A stretch of DNA of 58,224 nt, filler included, from Sluysia triapertura (lineage: Eukaryota), in NCBI GenBank assembly GCA_046118255.1. It is 4 parts of 4 records of this genome, joined end to end, with 100 filler letters (N's around TTAATTAATTAA, not from the genome) between each part and the next. Parts side by side here need not be neighbours in the genome. Positions count along the whole stretch, not along the records: positions 29,601 to 42,899 come from JBJNIA010047679.1; 3 more parts are not named here. One strand, written 5' to 3'. The translations under genes were made by a program, and so were the position numbers. Shown in pieces: positions 21,770-58,224 of this stretch. Every line of letters begins with the position of its first letter. Within the stretch, counting starts at the first letter, position 1. A model generated the notes under the pieces. It had not been told where the DNA came from. It searched no databases and was given only the letters and a program-made list of their open reading frames with translations.

Positions 21770-22795
21770 TCAATCCTGAGTTTCACAATTAAACAACTTT
21801 GTCAATTACATGGTACATTCAAGTCAAACATCATTAGGTACAAAACACAAAAAATTTGATTATCAATCTATTTTTGCTTAAATTACTTCTTACATTAAAA
21901 TAACAATCAGCAATATTATTATACATAAAATAATGAATTTAATTTCACTTTTTAAATTTAAATAATTTTCAAATTTTCACACCAAATTTTCTAATGAAAA
22001 ATGTTTACGGTTCAAACAAACCATTCTACGAACATTCTAGATTCTCCTCTCTCAAAGAAATCATCTCATTATATTTACATCATTTCAACATTCAACATAA
22101 ATTCAACATTCCATAATTAAAAATTAATATAAATTTGACTTTGCTCAACATTAAGTCTTTCCTTGCATGAACTCGGTCAAACCATACCTTCATCGAAAGG
22201 TCTTTTCAAAAAAATAAAAGTATCATTCCGCAATGAAACGTTATTCACAAAAACGTATTTTTTAATTAATTAATCTATTTTTAGACTTAATCTATTCTAT
22301 GTTTAAAAGTTTTATTAAGGTTCCAAAGATATTTAGTAATTTATAAGGCATTCAAGAGGCTCTAGATGTTTTCACCTTCACCCCTCTGATTCCTTTTTCT
22401 ATTTCTTCATGTTAATTATTACCATATTAAACTTATCTTTAATATTTTGATCAATGATTTTATTTCTCAAATATTTTAAAGATTTTAAATACTCTATAAG
22501 GTTACTCGAAGATCTCAAATGCTTATAGAATGTTTAAAGGTTAATAAAGTTTCAGATGATCTGAAAGATTACTAGTTCAAAGGTATTCCAATAACTTTAA
22601 AGGCTTATTATTAATGTATCTCAAACTTTCATAAGGAATCAAACCCTTATATAGGTCTTTGGAATGCCAAGGTATTGCTTAGCTGTTAACGTTATTGTTG
22701 ATGTTTTAATTCTTATGATTCTTATTTCAACGCTACTTATAATACTCAATCCATGATTCGGTATCCTATAGCTTCATGTTTCTCACTCATTTTTC
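21770..22795. repeat. Dispersed repeat family B, copy 2
   Basis: Colinear with 880-2010. Confidence 0.9.
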
Positions 22796-34865: not shown

Positions 34866-35899
34866 TTTTTATAAATGTAGTGAAATACACCAAGTTGGAT
34901 TATTTTGTTTTTTTTATGCGTCTTAAATATTTGTCTTTTATTAATAAATTTGGGCCTTAAGCCCCTTTTAGCTATTAATTATACATTATATAAAATTTGT
35001 TTCCTTTTAATTAATTTTTATTTGAAGAAAGATAATTTTTATAAATTGATAGGAATAAAATTGCCCTCAACACTTTAGTAGATAACGTAAAAATTAGTTA
35101 TTTTAACTAATTTTGTAATTTAAAATTAAAGAATAAATACGTTCCAATGTCTAAGTATTGATAAAGTGTATATCAAATTGATGCTTATAAAGATACTAAT
35201 TTTAAAATGTTACTAAACTTGACGGTTGGCGCACAACATATTAATGAAGAATGCTCCTGTGAGATTTATTATTTCATAAATTTTATTTTTAAATTAAGTT
35301 GAAAAATTATATTATTGGTATAATAACAATGTAACAATATTTTAAGTGTTGATTAGGTGATATTAAGAAGATAAGAGGATTGTTGACCACAAATCCTATA
35401 TTATTAGATAATTAAAATTAGATTGAATTTGAACATTGACGAAATTGCTGCTGAAATTCAATCAGTAAAATTAGTCGGCTAAAGGAGAATAGACAACTTT
35501 AATTTCGATCTTTTTAAATTCTTGATTTTAATTTCCTACAGCACCATAATGCTGCTACATAAGCAGTTACATTTTTGCATAAAATTAGAAACACAAACGA
35601 CATAGATAGAAGTTAGATTTTAGTTACCAAAACTTTCTAGCTGAGGACGCTGCCTTGATACATCTGTAGTTAACGGTGATATCAGGGATTATTCTTTAGT
35701 AATTGAATAACATAAATATTTAGAGTTAGAGGACCTATGATTAGTGATTTATTTTAAATTGAATATATTTTACGAAGATTTAAGTTGTAGCCCCTGGTTG
35801 TGAATTGTTTATAAAGAGTAATTTGCGCTGTTATAGAGAGTTATTTGTAATATTGTTATAAAGAATAATTTGTATTTTGTTATAAAGAGTACTTTGTAT

Positions 35900-37185: not shown

Positions 37186-38337
37186 AATATTAAATACTAA
37201 TATATATTGATTTTAGTTAAGATTTAAAGTTTAACATTGTGGAAATTAGTTGTGAGATTAGGATGTGTGATTAAGATTTTTAATTTGGATTAAATGCCTT
37301 ATCCTTAACGTAAGCACATAGATTCGCAGCTTTTAATTGTGGTGGCCAACCTATTATCTTAATAAATTTTATTAAAAATTTATTTAAGTATATTTCACAT
37401 TCACAAAAAAAATCCATTAAAAACATTTCTTTGAACATAAGTTTTTGCCAACATAGCACTCACCCCCCAAAATCTACAACTCACATTTCTAAATTCACAA
37501 ATAATACAAAAAATAATTAAAATCTTACTCGTTTCAACACTACACAACAACCTTGCAAAATCCCTCACAACCGTTCTTATACCTCAATTCTTTTCACATT
37601 CACCAAAATAAACTCCCATTTTTCAAAACATTTCAAATCTACAATTTACATTCAAAAATTAACATAAAACAATATTAAACTAAATCAACATATTCTACAT
37701 AAAACCATACTCTATAACATTTTAACATTCTCATATTTACCTCCTCTACATTCTCTAAAACAATTCATCCTCTAAAGTCAATTTAAATCTACAACCTTAT
37801 AGCATATAAATCACGGTGACATTCAATACCATCAAATTACATTAAAAATTCATCCAAAATATTTTATGTTTCATCTCTGAAGAATTCAGTTTCAGCCACA
37901 TTCGAAATTAATTATCATACACTTTTAAATCATCTCAAATATTCTAAATGCACGATCTTTTATCATTAAATCCTAACAACCAAACATGACTTTCTTTCAA
38001 AACACCAATGCACATCCATCACTCATTTTAACATTTACACTATTCCAAAGTACTCAAGTCATAACCTTCTACACTCTATTAACATCTTCGGTTAGAAACT
38101 TTATTTCATTCACAACATCAATGTATATTTAAAATCCATGTAAAATAATTATATCATTTTTAAAAACTTAAATCGTAAGTTTCTATATCATAGCAATTAA
38201 CCTCCATACACCATTAAAGATATCTAGTTTTTTGAATAGATTTTAATATGTTCAGAAGGCAAAGACATAAAAGAAATATCATGTATATTTCACAGAACAC
38301 AGAATTTATGCTTTTCGGGATAATAATAATAATAATA

Positions 38338-39789
38338 TGTGGTGGCCAACTCACTACTCTGAATAAAATTCACAAAAAATTCAAACATATTAAAATCTCA
38401 TAAACTTTCAAATATACTTTATTCATTTTAAATCCAAATCAAAACTAACTCATCATATCTAAATCATGCTCTTTAGCAACATATAACAATTCTGTAAAAT
38501 TCATCTCAATCACTTTTATATTTCATTTCGCTTTAGATCCATCAATATAAACTTTCACTTTTCAAAACACTTCAAGTCTACAATCTCATAGCATACAATA
38601 CCATCAATTTACATTAAGTTATTCATCAAAAATATTTTATTCGACATCTCATAACAATCCAACTACAACTACATTCGAAATCAGTTACCAGATATCTTCA
38701 AATCAATTCAGATATTCTAAAGTTATAATCTCTTATCAATTAACTTCTAACATCAAAACATTATTTTATCCAGAACATTAGACTGAAGTAACTAAATTTT
38801 CACTAAACACGTATCAATCTTTTTAAAACACAAATTCACAATTTCGTAAACTTTATCTCTTTTTTGAAGTTTAATATGTCTAGAAATTGAAGAATAAAAG
38901 AGAGATTGTGTATAAGTTCTAAAAGATAAAGAAATTTATGTGTTTTGGTTAATAATAATAATAATAACACTCTTGTTATTATTATTATAACCATTTTTAA
39001 ATTTATCATTTTTATTTTTATTTTTTAAACTATTAAATTGTAAATAAATCAGTAATTACCACCATCCATGTTGACATAGCTAATCACTATGTACAAATGC
39101 ATGTCAACATGCATGGTGGTTTATCTTTCGTTCATTTCATGATGAATGCTACAAATCACATCCATGGCTAGAATTAGCCAATAGAAATGTTAAAAAGTAA
39201 AAGAGAATTTTAGCCAAGAATTTTACAGTATTATACGTATGTCAGCAAACAATTTATCAGTACTATTAAACAACTAATCAAGAAACAACTACAATTTTTC
39301 TATGCACTAAAATAATTTTTCAAAAATTAATTGATCTCAATGTATAATTATAAATGTTAATTTATGAATAATAACCTCACTAATTTATTTTAGCAATAAT
39401 CAATTAGCAGCAAAATTTAGAGTAAAAATTAGAATCTTTTTAAAAAGCATATCAATGATGCTGATCTTATAGTTAAAACTCATAACAACGATGACGAACT
39501 TAAAGTTAAAAGTCATAACAACGATGATGATTATGATAACAAATATAATAACATTAAAGTTAGAGGTTATGACAACCGTGAAGATTACTACAAAGAAGAT
39601 ATGATAACGATGATTATAAATATATTAATCGTAAAGTTGAAAGTTACCATATTAGTGATGTCAATTATGGTTTATCTTAAAAGAAACTTTTATAATTCAA
39701 TTAAATATTATATTAAATAAAATTCATAAAATTTATCAATTAAAATTAAAATTTAATTTAATACTTCATAAATATACAAAATCACAATA
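38338..39789 (+). mobile_element. Nested solo LTR (family A, 1452 bp)
   Basis: Starts TGTGGTGGCCAAC like 37338, ends atcacaata; TAATA on both sides (38333-38337, 39790-39794); the outer copy resumes in register afterwards. Confidence 0.75.
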
Positions 39790-40141
39790 TAATAACATTT
39801 TTGTTATTATTATTATCGTCATTAATTTTTATTATATTTATTGCTAAAATTATTAATTTGGTAACTATCACTACCAGTGGTGACTGCATTAATTTACAAT
39901 GACAGTCAATGTCACCAATGATAGTGGTTCACACATCAATAATCAATCTCTGTTCATTCTTTCATGCATTTATATTGGCCATAGAACCAGAACAAGTATT
40001 ACAGTTGTTTTCATTTTCAATGCCTCTGGTTGGATGACCAATCACAGTATTTCAAAAATTTTCATTATTACAATTTGAAAAGTCTGAGCTAATCGAAAAA
40101 AATAATTTTGAAAAGGATTTATTTATTTAATTACGAAGATA

Positions 40142-40761
40142 GAATTTAACTATTATAAACACGACGATGATTTTGATGAAGATTATGAACTTAACAATAA
40201 CGAAGATGATGATTACAAAGCTAACTATTATAAACATGATGATTACAAAGTTAACAATAACAAAGATGATGATTACGAGGCTAACAATAATAAAGATGAT
40301 GATCGTGAAGCTAACGACAATAAAGACGATGATTACCAAGTTCACAATTATAAAGATGACGATTACGAACTTAACGAATATAAAAATGATGATTATGAAG
40401 CTAACGATAATAATTACGAATTTGATTATTACGAAGATGATTATTACGAAGTTAATGGTAGCAAAGATGATGATTACGAAGCTAACATTATTGCTATCTG
40501 TCCATTCACCACAGATAAATATGGCATATGGAAGTCATTGCTGTTACGCTCACAAAGTCTGTGAAATGAGGTCCACCAAGGAAAACGATTCAAGCTACAC
40601 CTAACATTCTCTTAGAATTACCAATATCTTAAGTAGCATCAAAATTTCAAATCAAAACGCGATAAATAACAATTTGTGTATCCACGAACTCAAAGTAATT
40701 ATTTATTATACTTTTTGGGATGATATTAATTTTTGTGATTTTTATTTAGATGATGAAATAG
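40142..40761 (+). pseudogene. LTR-borne spliced gene remnant: Asp/Tyr-rich 10-aa repeats plus Cys-containing domain
   Basis: DYELNNNEDDDYKANYYKHDDYKVNNNKDDDYEAN...NIIAICPFTTDKYG, frameshift, GSHCCYAHKVCEMRSTKENDSSYT*HSLRI...HELK, intron 40695-40749, MMK*. Confidence 0.7.
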
Positions 40762-41208
40762 TTGGATCAGGAGCTGGCACAACCAGAATTAAAATAATAA
40801 ACGTTCAATGTAATTTTAATAAAATTTTATGTGGTTGTAGTTCATTTATAAATTGTTTTTTATTTCAAAATTCACAATATAACAAAGATTGAAGACATAA
40901 GAACTTAATTAAAATTTCAGTTTCTTTTTTTCAAATCTATTTAAAATTTTTTAAAAATTCAATCATAACTCAAAGTTTAAATAATTATATTAAACCACAA
41001 CAAAAATGTTGTCAGGAGTTCAAAATAACCCTACTACCACAACATTAAGAAAGAAAAGATAAGAACTGGAGGCTTATGTTGATATTTAATTTTGATGTTA
41101 TCTGTTTCTTAGATTTAGATACTTATTAGCTTTCCTCAATTAAGATTTTATTATAATTTGGAAAATAATCAATATTAAAAATTATCCGTATCAATTCAAA
41201 TTTATTTT

Positions 41209-41270
41209 AATTAAAATATTACCAATTAAAATATTACCAATTAAAATATTACAAATTCGAATATTATAAA
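41209..41270. repeat. 15-bp tandem repeat (aattaaaatattacc), about 4 copies
   Basis: Directly visible. Confidence 0.85.
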
Positions 41271-42532
41271 TTATTTATTAAAAAGCAAGTATGTAAAAGT
41301 TAAAACACTTATACAATTAATAAGTAAAAATTGTCAAATAAACTTAGTAAGCGTAAAACATAAATAAAAATTATATGCAAAAATTAAAAGTTCGTTTAAA
41401 ATCTTGAAAAGTATTAATGTAATACATCAAATGTCAAAAAATTAAAAAATCCGTCTATATTATAGGAATAAATATTAAACAATATTAATTTATAATTAAT
41501 ATGTTGTAATTAAATGTTAATAAATAACTTTTATTGCATTAAATATACTTTTAGATTATAAATTCAGTTTAACTATTCTTAAATTAACTATTCTTAACTA
41601 TTCTTAACTATGTTTAAATTAACTATTCTTAAAAAAACATAAAACTAACGATTAATTAATTTTTCCAAAATAATCTTATTTTCTTCAGTTATAAATAAAT
41701 TGTTAATATCAAATTAATTAGTTTTTCCAAATATCAATACTTTTTTCAAATATTAATAATTTTTCTAAATAAATAATTGTCTTTTATCCAGCTATAAATA
41801 AACTGTTAATATCACTAAATCAATAATTTTTTAACTTTGACATTATATATTTGTGTAAGTGTAACGATTCACTATTTATAGTGTTTTTAAATACTATTTT
41901 TAGTAGTTTTATAAGTAAAATAATAAGTTGAATAATTAAAGCAATAATATTTTTTTAAATTAATTGTAAAGGATAATTTTATGTTTTTTATTTTTTGTGT
42001 AAAATTTATTGTATGTTTTATTCTTGAAATTAATATTATTATTATAAAATTAATTATTAAATAAAGTTTTTTATGAATTTAAATAAAATTTTTAATTTTA
42101 AATTTAAATAAAATTACAAATAATAATAATTTAAAAATAATTAATAATTTTAAAGACTAAATTTAAAAATAATTTAAAAAAATAATTAATAATTTAAAGT
42201 ATTGGAAATTATTAATTTGTTTAAATTATTAAAAACTTCTCGAAGATATTTTTTGTTTAAATTAATCGGCAGACATATTAGGAAAAATTACTATAAATAG
42301 GTTAGAATTTTTTAACATTAACCAGAAATTTTAGACGAAATTTTAGACGACAAAAAGAAAAGAAGATTAATAAATTTTTAGACTAATTTTATCGCAGAAG
42401 AAGATCAATAAATTTTAAGAAGAATTTTAGAAGACTAATTTTATCACAGAAGAAATTTAATAAATTTAAGAAGAATTACTATTCAAAAAGTTTTCCATGT
42501 CGTTAAAGTAATTTTTTATTTATTAAGTTTCT

Positions 42533-42899
42533 TATATCACCTTATAAAGGGATATACAAAATCTAACTTAAATTTAATTTTAATTTTTCATCGACACCTT
42601 AATAACAGGGTCGAGTAATTTTATTTTTTAAATTGACAAATAATCAACTTAGGTTGAATTAGTAAAATCATTATCTTTATTATAATTTCGTTTTTTGTAT
42701 AGTTTAGAACATAATTGTAATTATTTAATAAAAGCTTTAGAGTTTTAAGGAATTTTGTTTTTTGAGTTAAATTAAGTTAGATAATTAAGCGACAACTAAA
42801 TAAAATAATAAAATCTTTTTTGTATAACAACACCTTAATAAAAGGGTTGTGTAAATATTAAAATAATTCTTTTCATACAACATCTCATTAAGAGAGTTG
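42533..42899 (+). other. Array of four bulged-A stem-loops
   Basis: tatatc-A-cctt-ata-aagg-gatata; tcgac-A-cct-taataac-agg-gtcga; acaac-A-cctt-aataa-aagg-gttgt; caac-A-tctc-attaa-gaga-gttg. Confidence 0.75.
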
Positions 42900-42999: not shown

Positions 43000-43620
43000 A
43001 ACCACAAATAACATTGTATATACTCATAGCCGTTGCTACTTCACAGCCTTCTATTCACCTTACGTATCTTTTATTCCATTTTATTATTTGTATATGTAAG
43101 AAATTAGTAAGGATACAAAGAACAGATTGTGTTATTAAGAATCAAAGACTTTTATGCATGTTATTAGTTTTCAAATTATTATAATTCTTTTATTATTATT
43201 ATTATTACTAATCTTATTATTATTATAATTATTATTATCATTTATGTTATTATCAAATTAATTATTTGTACTATTAATTTTTGATAATTTAGTCTCTACC
43301 GCCATCAGCACATATAAAATCATTTTAAAATGTCAATAATACGTCAGTGCTGATGACGGCTTACCAACAGTAAAACATAATTTTATCAGCTGGCCAGAAA
43401 AATTTAATTCAATATCACCCAATCAGAGTGAATTCAGTTCTTATTCACTCAAAATACTCTGATTGGGTAGGCAGCATTAGAGTACAAATTTTCATAATTA
43501 TATTATTGGAGCTAAAAATAGAATACACAAAAAAATTGTAGCAACTTGTGATAATAGTTAGCGGTTAAAAATATTTGCCAGACACATTTAGTAATAATTC
43601 CTAACATTTGGAAAATTTTC
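43000..43620 (+). mobile_element. Family A LTR promoter-module fragment
   Basis: tgctacttc, tatatgtaagaa, tttatgc, (TTA)n, inverted repeat 43299-43311/43347-43359, tggcc, CCAAT inverted repeat 43417-43429/43456-43468, and aaattttcataatta as near 40056. Confidence 0.65.
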
Positions 43621-43697
43621 AACAATTGATGATGGATTTAGTTATTTTGCGTAAAGATGATGTATCTGATCTAATACAATTATGTATTTGAGAAACA

Positions 43698-45164
43698 ATG
43701 AAGAGTGAATTTATGTTGTGTATCAACGGCATGATCAATACAATGTTGCTAAACGATTGTGAAATAGTGATCAAACAATTCGAAGTGTATGAAGACCTCA
43801 CATTCAATGTATTATCTCTAGACAGACATGATATAACGACCAAACATTGTAGTATAATTAAAAAGGACGTTTTTAATACAATAATATTGATGATTAGGAA
43901 ATTTTGCGCGCGCAATGGTCCTATATCTGGTATTATATTATTAAAAATTCAAAAAATAATAATGAAACAACTTAATGAAGATAAAATTAGTCTTTTTAGT
44001 TTAAATTCATCAAATAAATACAAAATTAGTCCTTTTAGCTTATTACTATTAGATGAAAACCAAATCACGACAAGACAACCGGATGTACATAATTATGGAT
44101 TAATGGCGAAACAATTTTTTACGTGTAAAGATTATGTTCTTGTAGTAGTATTATTTAGAAGTTGCAAAGTAATGATTAAGGTCTTCGATGTACATAGTGT
44201 TGGTATAACGGTTAGACGATCTAGGATATATGAAGATGATTTATTCCATACAATATTAGTGTACAATTTCGGCAGAGTAAAAATACTATCTAATGCAAGT
44301 GAAGGAGAAAATATTCTAAAGTTTACCGATAATGTTAAGTGTCTCGATATAACCGTATCGTCCATCGCAGTGGTCCACAGTCATAAAAAATCCGGGATTA
44401 GTCTAAGTAATTTTGTTATATTAAACTTACATTACTATATCTATTATATTGTTTATGTATTTATTAGTCATGATACTTCCATCAATCAAGAAGTCCATGG
44501 AATCGCGATCCGTGGAGAAAAGGTGTCTGCAGAAAAATCTAAAATTTTTAGTTTATTTACAAACAAATTTACAGTTACCAAACTAATCTTCAACATAAAC
44601 ATTTTGTTTAGTTTATTAATAAATAATTATAGGTCTTATTTTCACACAATTAAAGTTATTTGCGAAATAAATAAAAATGTTCATATTCAATCTATAGTTT
44701 ATTATAAATCATTTATTAAAGGAATAAGTAATTTGATAAAGTCCTCAATCGATATCTGTAACTTCATCTTTCGTAGCCATCACACAGTTTCCAACATAAA
44801 GTTACGTTTTAATTTAATATTCTCCTATATGACTATTGTAAAAATCACGAATACTCTGCCTTCTTTCAATTCAATAAATGTACTTATACAAATTATTGCC
44901 GATATACTTAATAATAGATTTAGACAGTTAATATTCTATGGGGTTAAGTCTAAGGCCATCTTTGGCAAATTATCAAACTATATTAAAAACCACTCGACAC
45001 TGTATCCACACTACATATACCCCATAATCTTTTTGACTCCATCTTCTATTTTTAGATTCGATTTTGTTTTTAATAAAATTCTGATTAGATATCTTACTTT
45101 CACTTTCACTTATTGTATATTTTTGCAAGTTTTCTCTGAAATGATTATTTCTTTAATAGTTTAG
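43698..45164 (+). CDS. Orphan ORF, 488 aa (extends in frame to ATG 43632 across one TGA)
   Basis: Longest ORF in the window; opposite strand in the same register is full of stops; no domain recognised. Confidence 0.5.
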   Translation: MKSEFMLCINGMINTMLLNDCEIVIKQFEVYEDLTFNVLSLDRHDITTKHCSIIKKDVFNTIILMIRKFCARNGPISGIILLKIQKIIMKQLNEDKISLFSLNSSNKYKISPFSLLLLDENQITTRQPDVHNYGLMAKQFFTCKDYVLVVVLFRSCKVMIKVFDVHSVGITVRRSRIYEDDLFHTILVYNFGRVKILSNASEGENILKFTDNVKCLDITVSSIAVVHSHKKSGISLSNFVILNLHYYIYYIVYVFISHDTSINQEVHGIAIRGEKVSAEKSKIFSLFTNKFTVTKLIFNINILFSLLINNYRSYFHTIKVICEINKNVHIQSIVYYKSFIKGISNLIKSSIDICNFIFRSHHTVSNIKLRFNLIFSYMTIVKITNTLPSFNSINVLIQIIADILNNRFRQLIFYGVKSKAIFGKLSNYIKNHSTLYPHYIYPIIFLTPSSIFRFDFVFNKILIRYLTFTFTYCIFLQVFSEMIISLIV

Positions 45165-45654
45165 AAATAATTTCTTCCTACTGATTATCATTTAATTTAA
45201 CTTTTTTATAGAATAAAAATAGAAATGTAAACAATATTTTTGTCAGTAATGACTTAAGATATTATTACAGTAAAATAAAATTGAGCTACAGTATATGACT
45301 TATGACATGATGTGGGCATATTGTAACTGTAAATGACAATTTTAACGTTTAATTAACTTTCATGCAATATACTTAACATATTATTGATTTTAACTGAAGG
45401 TTTTATATAATAAATTGATTTACTTTAGTCTTTTCAATTCAAGTAGATGGTTTTTCTTACTACAACTTTACTACATTAAAATCTTGATCTAAAGCAGTCT
45501 ATCAAGAAAAAGCATGTTAGTGATATAATATTTATTTTATCATAAAATTACTAAGTACAAAGGTCTATAATTATAAAAGTAAAATAATTTTAATTTTAAA
45601 ATTAAAGCTTCTTATGAGCCTTTAATTTGTAATCTTTAGTATTTTAAATTAGAT

Positions 45655-46060
45655 TTTATCCCTCATTATATCGGGGACAACTATGACAATGTGGATTTTA
45701 CGATTAACATTCGATGAATGGAACCAATCTTACAAAACAGTAACTTACTAAAATAAAATAAAATTCAATTATTGTTAATCCTTGCAATTGACAGTGGTAT
45801 CGTGAAAATTTCTAATAAGTATTTGAATCGTGATATAAACTCTTAATAAATTGTGTAACTAAGTTGAGATTTAAACTAAACTGATGCCAGTTTATACATT
45901 AGTCCATCGGTCAATCAAAAACAATGGAATTTTTCGATTATTCTATAATGTTCTTGAATTTTCTATTTCTCTTTAAGAAAATGTGGTCATTTTTTGAAGA
46001 ATTTATTTTCTTTTTTAAAAAATAATTTTCTTTTATAGAAATTAATTATTTTAAAAGGTT
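45655..46060. repeat. Dispersed repeat family C, copy 2
   Basis: Colinear motifs with 14860-15270. Confidence 0.6.
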
Positions 46061-46993
46061 AATTACTTGTATATTATACAAAACGAATAAATATGATCGA
46101 TCACCTTAATTAGATAGTGAAAGTTTAAGACTAATTATTTCAACCAAGTTAAGTCGATTTTAATCCTTATATTAAGTAAAGAAAAAGTTTATACATTAAT
46201 ATCTTAAGATTTATTTAATATTTAGATGATTTAGTGTTAGCCGATTTTTAATTAAGTTTACTCGCATTAATAAGTACGAAAAAATTTGAATTAGTTTTTT
46301 TAGCCGAATTTAAATTAGGCATCTAAACTGTTACCAAATTATTTGAATAGTCGAATTTTAATAATTCGAGTAAAATCTTTTTATACTCTGTATTACATTG
46401 TAAAATATTTGTTATTATTAACTCATAAATAACAATAGATCTGAAAAAGATAATTTGTTAATTTGACAATAATTTTTCTCTAAAGAAATAAACTATCAGG
46501 GCACACGTTTTAGTTCTCATTTTAAAAGAGAATTCGAATTAAAGGAAGTAACTTATATAATTTCACATTTATAAAATCAGTCGAAATTTAATTGTTTTTC
46601 TAATACGATGTTAAAATTAATTTTTTCGAAATCATAAACCTCATTAACATAGGAGATATACACAATTAACGAGTTTATAAACTCAACCCAATAAATATTA
46701 ACCAAATAAGTATCAAGCTTAAACTGCTTATAAAGGTTTCAAACTTTTAGCACATCACAGGCTAAGCAAAAGCTTTCTTCTTCTTATTCTTCGAAAATTT
46801 TAAAATAATCTAGTAATTATTACATTAAATAAATACTTTTCAGAAGAAGAAAGATTTAAAATAACTTATACTTACATTGAAGATACTTGTTGCGAATAAT
46901 ATTGGCAACTTTATTTTTCTTACAAATAAATGTAAAAACCACGAAACTGTCGAACAAATATAAAAATGAATGTCGTTAAAAGTAATTAATTAA

Positions 46994-54799: not shown

Positions 54800-55150
54800 A
54801 GTAAATTAATAGAATTTTACATTGATAATAAATCATATCTTCAGAAAGAACAGTTGATAAATTGATATAGAATACAGGTATTATTCAGGAAGTTTACATC
54901 AATAAAGATTTAACCTTTGGAATCTTAATTTACATTACTCAAATAAAACGTTTTGGTATTATTTTTAACTATAAAGCAGAGTTTTAGCGAAACCATTATT
55001 AGAGATTAAGAGTTCATTCAAGTATATTCTAATTTTTATAATATAAAAAATGATAAAGTTTAGTTACTTGTAAATCAGAACTATAATCTGATAAGAGTTT
55101 GTTGAGCACATTCAAACATTCATACAATCTACCAACTCCTTCATAAGAAA
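54800..55150 (+). mobile_element. Possible highly decayed Gypsy-like pol remnant
   Basis: Weak relics TGIIQE, RFGIIFNYKAEF and HIQT..NLPTPS in the order expected for RT; many indels. Confidence 0.25.
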
Positions 55151-57097: not shown

Positions 57098-58224
57098 TTA
57101 CAAAGACTTCGTCCCAGAGGCAGTAGAATTTTTGGGGTGGATTGAGTTTTTTGAGTCATTGCTATTTGAAAATGTTCTTTGGACGAGTGTTAAGGGCTTA
57201 TTATTATAAGATTTATGAAAGGAATTAAATGGTTTGGATGATTTAACGTTGAGACTGGAACTAACTGCGTAGTCCATGTTTTTATACATAAAGGTCTTAC
57301 GTATGACAATTACGTGGTTTTTGATGAAGGGAGGTTCATTCAATTGACGTAGATTTGAAAATATGGGTTGTTTACGTATAAGTCGTTTTAAAGAGATTAT
57401 GCAATTATTCTTTTGGCTTATATCATAAAAACTGGCTTTAATACAAAAAACGATGTTTACTTTAACTGTTTTAAATTCTAGTCCTATAACGTTTAGGATC
57501 TGTTCTTCCATAAATTCACTATCTTTAAATACACAATAAAAATGAGAGAAAATACGGTACTCAATATTAAGTTTTATTAATACAAAAAGTTCCTGTAATA
57601 TTGTTATGTGTTTGCCGGAATTTGATAATGATTGCGTCCCTGTTCCGTTCACGTATCCAACTTCGTGATTATACAACTTGGTGACCCTGTGATATATAAA
57701 AATAATATAAATATCTTTAAGTAAGTGTTTAATAGAAATGAAAATTAGTAGTTTACCTTTAGAGAATAAAGTCAAAGCTGTGCATTCGGATACGAATCTG
57801 ACAGAGTATTGTGGAGCCGCAACAGCATCCCATGTACACGAATCATGCATAGTAAGGCCATATATTATGTATTCACGTTCAGCGCGGTTCACGTAGTTTA
57901 CATTCTGCCTGGCGTTATTTACATCATTCCCGCTACTTTTATTGATAATATTTCGCTTCGCACCATAGACGTTCCTTAGACTAAATTCCAGACTAATCAC
58001 ATCGGTTGCGTGCTTCCTGGTGCTATTTACAGTGTTTACACTAATTTCGTTTATTGTACATCGCTTCACGCTATCGGCATCACATATACTAAATTCCAGA
58101 CTAATTACGTCGGTTGCGAGCTTCCTGGTGCTATTTACAGTGTTTACACTAATTTCGTTTATTGTACATCGCTTCACGGTATCGGTATTACATATACTAA
58201 ATTCCAGACTAATTACATCGGTTG
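57098..58224 (-). CDS. Orphan protein with 36-aa tandem repeats; start lies beyond the window
   Basis: Frame is open from the window edge; repeat KRCTINEISVNTVNSTRKxATDVISLEFSICxxDxV precedes a unique C-terminal region. Confidence 0.55.
   Translation of the reverse strand, partial: TDVISLEFSICNTDTVKRCTINEISVNTVNSTRKLATDVISLEFSICDADSVKRCTINEISVNTVNSTRKHATDVISLEFSLRNVYGAKRNIINKSSGNDVNNARQNVNYVNRAEREYIIYGLTMHDSCTWDAVAAPQYSVRFVSECTALTLFSKGKLLIFISIKHLLKDIYIIFIYHRVTKLYNHEVGYVNGTGTQSLSNSGKHITILQELFVLIKLNIEYRIFSHFYCVFKDSEFMEEQILNVIGLEFKTVKVNIVFCIKASFYDISQKNNCIISLKRLIRKQPIFSNLRQLNEPPFIKNHVIVIRKTFMYKNMDYAVSSSLNVKSSKPFNSFHKSYNNKPLTLVQRTFSNSNDSKNSIHPKNSTASGTKSL
57981..58224. repeat. 108-bp tandem repeat, at least 2.3 copies
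   Basis: ctaaattccagactaat recurs at 57981, 58089 and 58197. Confidence 0.95.

Follow-up and report, generated by a model that had tools for sequence, protein, structure and literature searches.

The window, a stretch of 58,224 nucleotides from Sluysia triapertura, is an AT-rich animal scaffold with 24.9% G+C overall and four gaps. Its open frames include animal gene fragments recognised by Pfam, namely innexin, Ski/Sno and a ZZ finger. The best matches of the innexin fragment are flatworm proteins, with 50-62% identity, which makes a fast-evolving spiralian the probable source. Base composition by itself would permit no more than a guess at an orthonectid (73% A+T in 10.1101/282285). Within this window, positions 41045-42899 form a non-coding tract of 1.85 kb with 16.5% G+C. 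An array of four small hairpins (H1-H4) lies at the far end of this tract and stops at a gap. The neighbourhood of the array is rich in repeats, and the contig break falls inside H4 (Table 1).

Table 1. Features of the hairpin array and its surroundings, in order along the window
Position	Strand	Feature	Remarks
41047-41082	+	Purine tract, 4 nt, then TGTTG	Weak PPT/LTR-start candidate; TG at 41077
41209-41814	.	AT-rich short tandem repeats of 15, 10/25, 19 and 44 bp	U3/enhancer-like in layout only
41872-41881	-	Exact inverted twin of CTATAAATAG, facing away	Only other copy in the window; 410 bp upstream
41991-42200	.	A/T spacer between the two TATA words	5.7% G+C
42291-42300	+	CTATAAATAG, TATA-box-like word	242 bp before H1
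42325-42477	+	Short direct repeats: 12-bp x2, 52-bp x2, 7 AGAAGA	Between TATA word and H1
42533-42556	+	H1	6-bp lower stem, bulged A 42539, 4-bp upper stem, 3-nt loop ATA
42591-42614	+	H2	5-bp lower stem, bulged A 42596, 3 bp and T.C mismatch, loop AATAA
42644-42657	+	Fifth hairpin, without bulge	CAAC/GTTG lower stem in common with H3/H4; -4.4 kcal/mol
42827-42850	+	H3	5-bp lower stem, bulged A 42832, 4-bp upper stem, loop AATAA
42878-42899	+	H4	Lower stem of at least 4 bp, bulged A 42882, 4-bp upper stem, loop ATTAA
42900-42999	.	Gap with TTAATTAATTAA spacer	Interrupts H4
43692-45164	+	490-codon open frame past the gap, orphan	No Pfam family

The tract begins beside a repeated unit. Two diverged copies of this unit, at 59-859 and 40100-41044, have a 30-bp tandem repeat with a D/N/Y-rich frame, a CCCH-zinc-finger-like stretch that is frameshifted in the second copy, and an apparent short intron. 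An end of about 55 bp, with CCACAACA twice, is much better conserved. The copy at 40100-41044 stops where the non-coding tract starts.

The initial annotation placed a TATA box about 240 bp before the hairpins. The word is present, but it has an exact inverted twin upstream, and TATAWAWR is common, with 158 occurrences in the window. It also matches the MEF2 consensus, YTA(W)4TAR, a weak fit because this pattern occurs 111 times in the window. Transcription by Pol III is unlikely, because T runs begin within 40 nt of the TATA word. A long palindrome across the spacer between the two TATA words was rejected. It reflects local composition, since its score was reached by 29-30 out of 300 pairs shuffled locally. 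Sigma-70 promoters and intrinsic terminators were rejected as well, their counts being at chance level.

Two further claims about the surroundings held up. The short agaaga repeats after the TATA word were found again, and a T-rich tract does precede each hairpin, with 8-9 T in the preceding 15 nt. The latter is a modest feature, because 134 of the 575 15-mers of the region are equally T-rich.

Pfam was searched with 117 stop-to-stop frames of the window (16 + 101), and with six-frame read-through of 39300-42301 and 43000-46601 only. A search of 1.84 billion representatives gave no homologue of the orphan frame past the gap. A decayed reverse transcriptase on the minus strand at 44700-45200 was considered and rejected: it has no Pfam support, and the stretch is the antisense of this same frame. 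A covariance-model search of Rfam 15 to E 1 found no family at the hairpin locus (IRE, histone stem-loop, hammerhead, snRNA and others), and it gave just one match in the window, to snoR104 at 54833 (E 0.51), which is unrelated. No tRNA gene was found in the window.

Shape kept through compensatory change

The four hairpins lie where they had been reported and fold as claimed, each with an unpaired A, a lower stem ending in C and an A/T loop. Common to all is an A bulged on the 5' side above a C-G pair. Invariant in H1-H4 are this C-G pair, the bulged A, a C-G pair at +2, a T-A pair at +3 and the A...A ends of the loop. H3 contains a canonical AATAAA at 42837. H4 has two compensatory changes in its upper stem and is truncated by the gap, as had been stated; its last pair is lost, and the array may therefore be longer. 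The fifth, bulge-less hairpin is possibly a worn copy of the array unit.

The folds are stable in their context. Within the 590-nt region, the pairs form with a probability of at least 0.92 on the plus strand and at least 0.96 on the minus strand, and the bulge is unpaired with a probability of at least 0.98. Single-hairpin folding z-scores on the plus strand range from -2.2 to -3.8.

Both strands of the 58 kb were scanned for the shape, defined as at least 4 bp ending in C, a bulged A, at least 3 bp and a loop of 3-8. Seven matches were found on the plus strand and none on the minus strand. Four of the seven are H1-H4, and each of the remaining three contains just one G-C pair. Dinucleotide shuffling of 42290-42899, repeated 1000 times, never gave a count above 2 under the C-A rule, against 4 observed. 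When any 5' bulge was allowed and three or more G-C pairs were required, the same shuffles never exceeded 3, again against 4. Without the G-C requirement the excess is weaker, the observed 7 being reached by 31 of the 1000.

The stems differ by compensatory change, as the initial annotation had claimed. With H1-H4 in register at the bulge, 34 pairs can be read and 33 of them are Watson-Crick, the one mismatch being T.C at +4 of H2, and six of nine stem positions show a change on both sides. An alignment with MAFFT, in which the loop gap of H1 is misplaced, is 93.9% paired and has 5 two-sided pairs. Column shuffles, which ignore the kinship of the copies, scored as high in 5 of 500 cases, and slid-register controls gave 41-56% paired. 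The sample consists of four related copies, which came to notice because they pair. The shape is kept through compensatory change, and the bulge is fixed.

Kinship among the copies is uneven. None of 200 shuffles was as alike as H2 and H3, and at most one of 200 as alike as H3 and H4. H1 resembles the others in shape only, with 21-90 of 200 shuffles as alike in sequence. The array had been described as two pairs. All four hairpins are present, but a duplicated two-hairpin module was rejected, because only H2-H3 and H3-H4 are relatives in sequence and H1 is not.

A model search, also suggested in the initial annotation, was run in the window. With a model built from H2-H4, the held-out H1 was the best non-training match at 19.1 bits (E 0.084). 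The next match reached 18.2 bits, so that H1 was recovered by a margin of less than 1 bit. Neither this model nor sequence comparison revealed a second copy of the array in the 58-kb window.

Collections of IMG/VR, phage, plasmid and metagenome sequences held nothing informative on the array. A pattern derived from H3 had 21 single matches in IMG/VR. These are taken as chance, because 20 of the 21 lie inside stop-free frames of more than 100 codons and none is similar to the region by blastn. Two metagenome scans gave 0 and 0 matches, and blastn of the region against 50,697 phage records found nothing. The plasmid collection gave one 60-nt AT-rich match, outside the hairpins. The array is a real, statistically solid structural motif without an Rfam match.

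Compensatory change can also be mimicked. The hairpins might have no function and be duplicated quasi-palindromes, the arms of which were recopied by template switching. Such an origin agrees with H2-H3 and H3-H4 being sequence duplicates, with five other G+C-containing inverted repeats in the window, and with there being only four copies. Arm-to-arm repair should presumably erase the bulge too, yet all four copies keep it, at the same distance from the loop. Moreover, H1 has the shape without overall sequence likeness, and the flanks have diverged where the stems have not. An origin without function is decidedly unlikely.

Known hairpins of similar form

RNA phages, yeast totiviruses and retroviruses offer well-known cases of protein-binding hairpins that are reiterated and conserved in structure. 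In capsid-binding hairpins the stems vary around a fixed bulge, as shape recognition predicts. By analogy, the variable stems around a fixed bulge at this locus suggest shape recognition as well. That H1-H4 are protein-binding hairpins recognised by shape is well supported by covariation around the invariant bulge, the binding itself being a prediction from sequence. To this extent the protein-binding reading of the initial annotation stands. It gave the MS2 operator as an example, and the operator of Qbeta is closer.

In the MS2 operator, 2 bp lie between the bulge and a 4-nt loop, whereas the array has 3-4 bp above the bulge and loops of 3 or 5 nt. The likeness lies in a bulged-A stem-loop and in reiterated, degenerate sites. 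One account describes many degenerate reiterated hairpins that serve as packaging signals in MS2 (PMC4751978). MS2 is not the closest analogue, because an upper stem of 4 bp is more in keeping with the Qbeta operator.

The Qbeta operator has a bulged A, and its upper stem must have 4 bp and its loop 3 nt (PMC11724954). The array shares the bulged A and the 4-bp upper stem, and H1 also has a 3-nt loop, but this is an analogy only. Stem and bulge agree in three of the four hairpins (H2 has its mismatch), the 3-nt loop in one, and UAA as a whole loop in none. The loop of H1 is ATA rather than UAA, and the loops of H2-H4 have 5 nt. The setting differs as well: the array occurs in four copies on an animal chromosome, with no known coat protein. 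A leviviral context, with the operator ahead of the replicase gene of an RNA phage, is absent from this nuclear scaffold, for which the 50,697 phage records gave no blastn match.

A eukaryotic parallel is the encapsidation signal of the yeast L-A/M dsRNAs. This signal, which lies downstream of the RdRp in those genomes, is a stem-loop of about 20 nt with a critical A protruding on its 5' side (PMC8709356). Unlike it, the array lies in genomic DNA behind a TATA word, has loops of A/T only, and has no totivirus gene nearby. The scanned frames gave no Pfam match to an RdRp or a capsid.

Retroviral leaders offer another comparison. The polyA hairpin of HIV-1 encloses AAUAAA and lies in the R region of the LTR (PMC2645353). 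The array resembles the TAR and polyA hairpins in lying downstream of a TATA box and in having AAUAAA within H3. It differs in starting about 210 nt past the putative start rather than at +1, in having a single-A bulge, and in that its LTR is putative.

The same comparison raises control of 3' ends. Here the loops would present or hide poly(A) signals before G/U- or U-rich tracts, as the HIV-1 5' LTR polyA hairpin does according to that source. The loop hexamers TATAAA, AATAAC, AATAAA and ATTAAG suit this idea, as do the U-rich tracts between the hairpins. However, the canonical hexamer occurs in H3 only, and AATAAA is common anyway, with 7 in the 590-nt region and 3.7 per kb across the window. 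An invariant bulge, furthermore, is not needed for hiding a signal. A role in 3'-end control is very unlikely.

The molecule itself has to be considered. The core stems of H1-H4 contain zero G-U or A-C pairs and hence show no strand asymmetry; they fold equally on both strands, as RNA and as DNA. DNA folding energies are -3.9 to -5.4 kcal/mol on the minus strand and -4.2 to -6.0 kcal/mol on the plus strand. The whole 590-nt region is slightly more ordered on the plus strand (z -3.06) than on the minus strand (z -2.18). Plus-strand RNA was chosen because of the TATA word alone. On this choice, the hairpins would function at the RNA level, as part of a plus-strand Pol II transcript.

Alternately, the hairpins could act on the minus strand as a single-stranded DNA signal. 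Each would then be an imperfect hairpin that has a T-rich loop and, on its 3' side, an extrahelical T. Its reader would be a recombinase or an HUH nuclease, in the manner of IS608 or REP/BIME. DNA folding that is as good on the minus strand agrees with such a signal, as do the bulged T present there in 4 of 4 hairpins and the clustering of the copies. BIME hairpin pairs are inverted, whereas all four hairpins here have the same orientation. In Helitrons, the hairpin at the 3' end is followed by CTRR. Here CTRR occurs within 20 nt of only one of seven readable hairpin ends.

IS608 TnpA recognises an extrahelical T and thymine loops (PMC5027513, 10.1101/2024.12.22.630000; cf. PMC5934647, PMC3479197). 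On the minus strand, TTAC directly abuts the foot of the hairpin on the 5' side in two of three readable copies. The third has TTTG instead, and no tetranucleotide is common to all copies. In IS608, TTAC is the cleavage site and not a word at the foot. IS608 and REP/BIME are prokaryotic, and reports of Replitrons come from plants, algae and protists. Among the scanned frames, Pfam found no HUH, Rep or helicase domain, and no gene for a cognate HUH (Y1) nuclease was seen there. A single-stranded DNA signal is unlikely.

A joint form of this explanation, in which an HUH-type protein reads the extrahelical-T hairpins as the cis signal of an undescribed animal mobile element acting via single-stranded DNA, is highly improbable. 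In such an element, the divergent pair of TATA words would flank a nearly pure A/T, easily melted spacer that could be an origin.

Judged by these comparisons, the array is shaped like the Qbeta operator and the L-A signal, and is apparently a member of none of the families compared.

The proposed carrier and its reader

The best explanation, held tentatively and with somewhat less than even confidence, is an RNA hairpin that binds a protein, occurs in several copies and lies in the R/U5-leader of a mobile element. It would be shaped like the Qbeta operator and the L-A signal and belong to neither. A Pol II transcript would start about 30 nt past the TATA word, and H1-H4 would be reiterated sites for one protein that reads the shape and a few fixed bases. 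These bases would comprise the bulged A with the C-G pair beneath it, the next fixed pairs upward (C-G and U-A), and the A-closed A/U loop. The protein would pocket the flipped-out A, like the Qbeta coat protein or the L-A packaging machinery, and four copies would provide avidity. The array would sit in the cis region (R/U5 or leader) of this element, which would probably be of the LTR type and have its other parts in or beyond the gap. The reader would therefore be a Gag-like protein encoded by the element or a host export or processing factor.

Several points speak for this explanation. They are the excess over shuffles, the six two-sided changes against one mismatch, the first rank of the held-out H1, and the published capsid precedents with a 5'-bulged A. 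The TATA word upstream on the plus strand and the fold of that strand add to them, as do the repeat-rich neighbourhood, the contig break inside H4, and a layout in which short tandem repeats are followed by the TATA word and this by a structured tract. Counted against it are the lack of mobile-element domains in the scanned frames and of a PBS before the gap, the weakness of the PPT candidate, the inverted TATA twin, the frequency of TATAWAWR, the missing second copy in 58 kb and the lack of strand asymmetry. The four related copies are also few and were found because they pair, and the margin of H1 is narrow.

The retroelement leader and packaging signal of the initial annotation are plausible candidates. 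Pfam found no gag, protease, RT, integrase or other mobile-element domain in the 117 window frames or in the read-through of 39300-42301 and 43000-46601; a solo LTR would show none either. From the TATA word to the gap, the plus strand has no PBS-like CA-TGG. Because the contig ends inside H4, the gap could hold both a PBS and gag. Of the TG...CA ends of an LTR, the candidate TG follows the purine tract, and the right end would fall in the gap. A TATA word followed by poly(A) signals is present, with seven AATAAA downstream of CTATAAATAG, and both words are common at such a base composition.

The array may instead belong to the host. It would then be part of a single-copy lncRNA, or of the 5' leader of an orphan gene past the gap, with the hairpins bound by a host RNA-binding protein in the manner of IRE or Roquin-type elements. 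A variant places it in a 3' UTR on the minus strand. The array is single in the window, the scanned frames nearby encode no mobile-element protein, and the orphan 490-codon frame follows on the plus strand. However, the gap separates the hairpins from this frame, the surroundings are repeats, and the locus has no Rfam match to E 1. An IRE requires a bulged C and a CAGUGN loop, both of which are absent here. Taken together, the forms of a host element are rather unlikely.

The evidence base is one locus with four copies. If the region is an LTR leader, it is a small candidate, open to direct testing, for the means by which an element of this kind selects its RNA or processes it. If it is a host element or a single-stranded DNA signal, it marks an unknown pair of protein and nucleic acid in a fast-evolving animal. 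No description of comparable hairpins was found in the invertebrate-retroelement literature searched, most subscription papers lying outside that search.

Repeats elsewhere in the window

A repeat of about 1 kb occurs at 860-1966 and 21770-22756. The copies are 74% identical, and close to one end both conserve a minus-strand TATA word (1857-1866 and 22645-22654). They are possibly solo LTRs or a non-coding gene family. An 11-base word at 1851-1861, before the TATA word of this repeat, is identical to the 5' arm of H2. It is unable to form the H2 hairpin, is missing from the second copy of the repeat, and is probably a chance match.

Inverted repeats that contain G+C and have arms of 13-20 bp lie at 5949-6021, 39058-39120, 43299-43359, 43417-43468 and 46769-46857. 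Those at 5949 and 43299 have a common CATCAG/CTGATG core. The five may be MITE-like or intronic RNA stems.

At the end of the window, 57101-58222 on the minus strand is a stop-free frame of 374 codons that runs to the window end and covers a 108-bp tandem repeat (57980-58224). It has no convincing family. A GVPQGSILG motif, typical of LINE reverse transcriptases, appears in a stop-riddled frame on the minus strand at about 35300-35700. Tandem units at 37339-38345 and 38349-38965 have a strong C-over-G skew, start with TGTGGTGGCCAAC and end in (TAA)n; they look like non-autonomous non-LTR elements.
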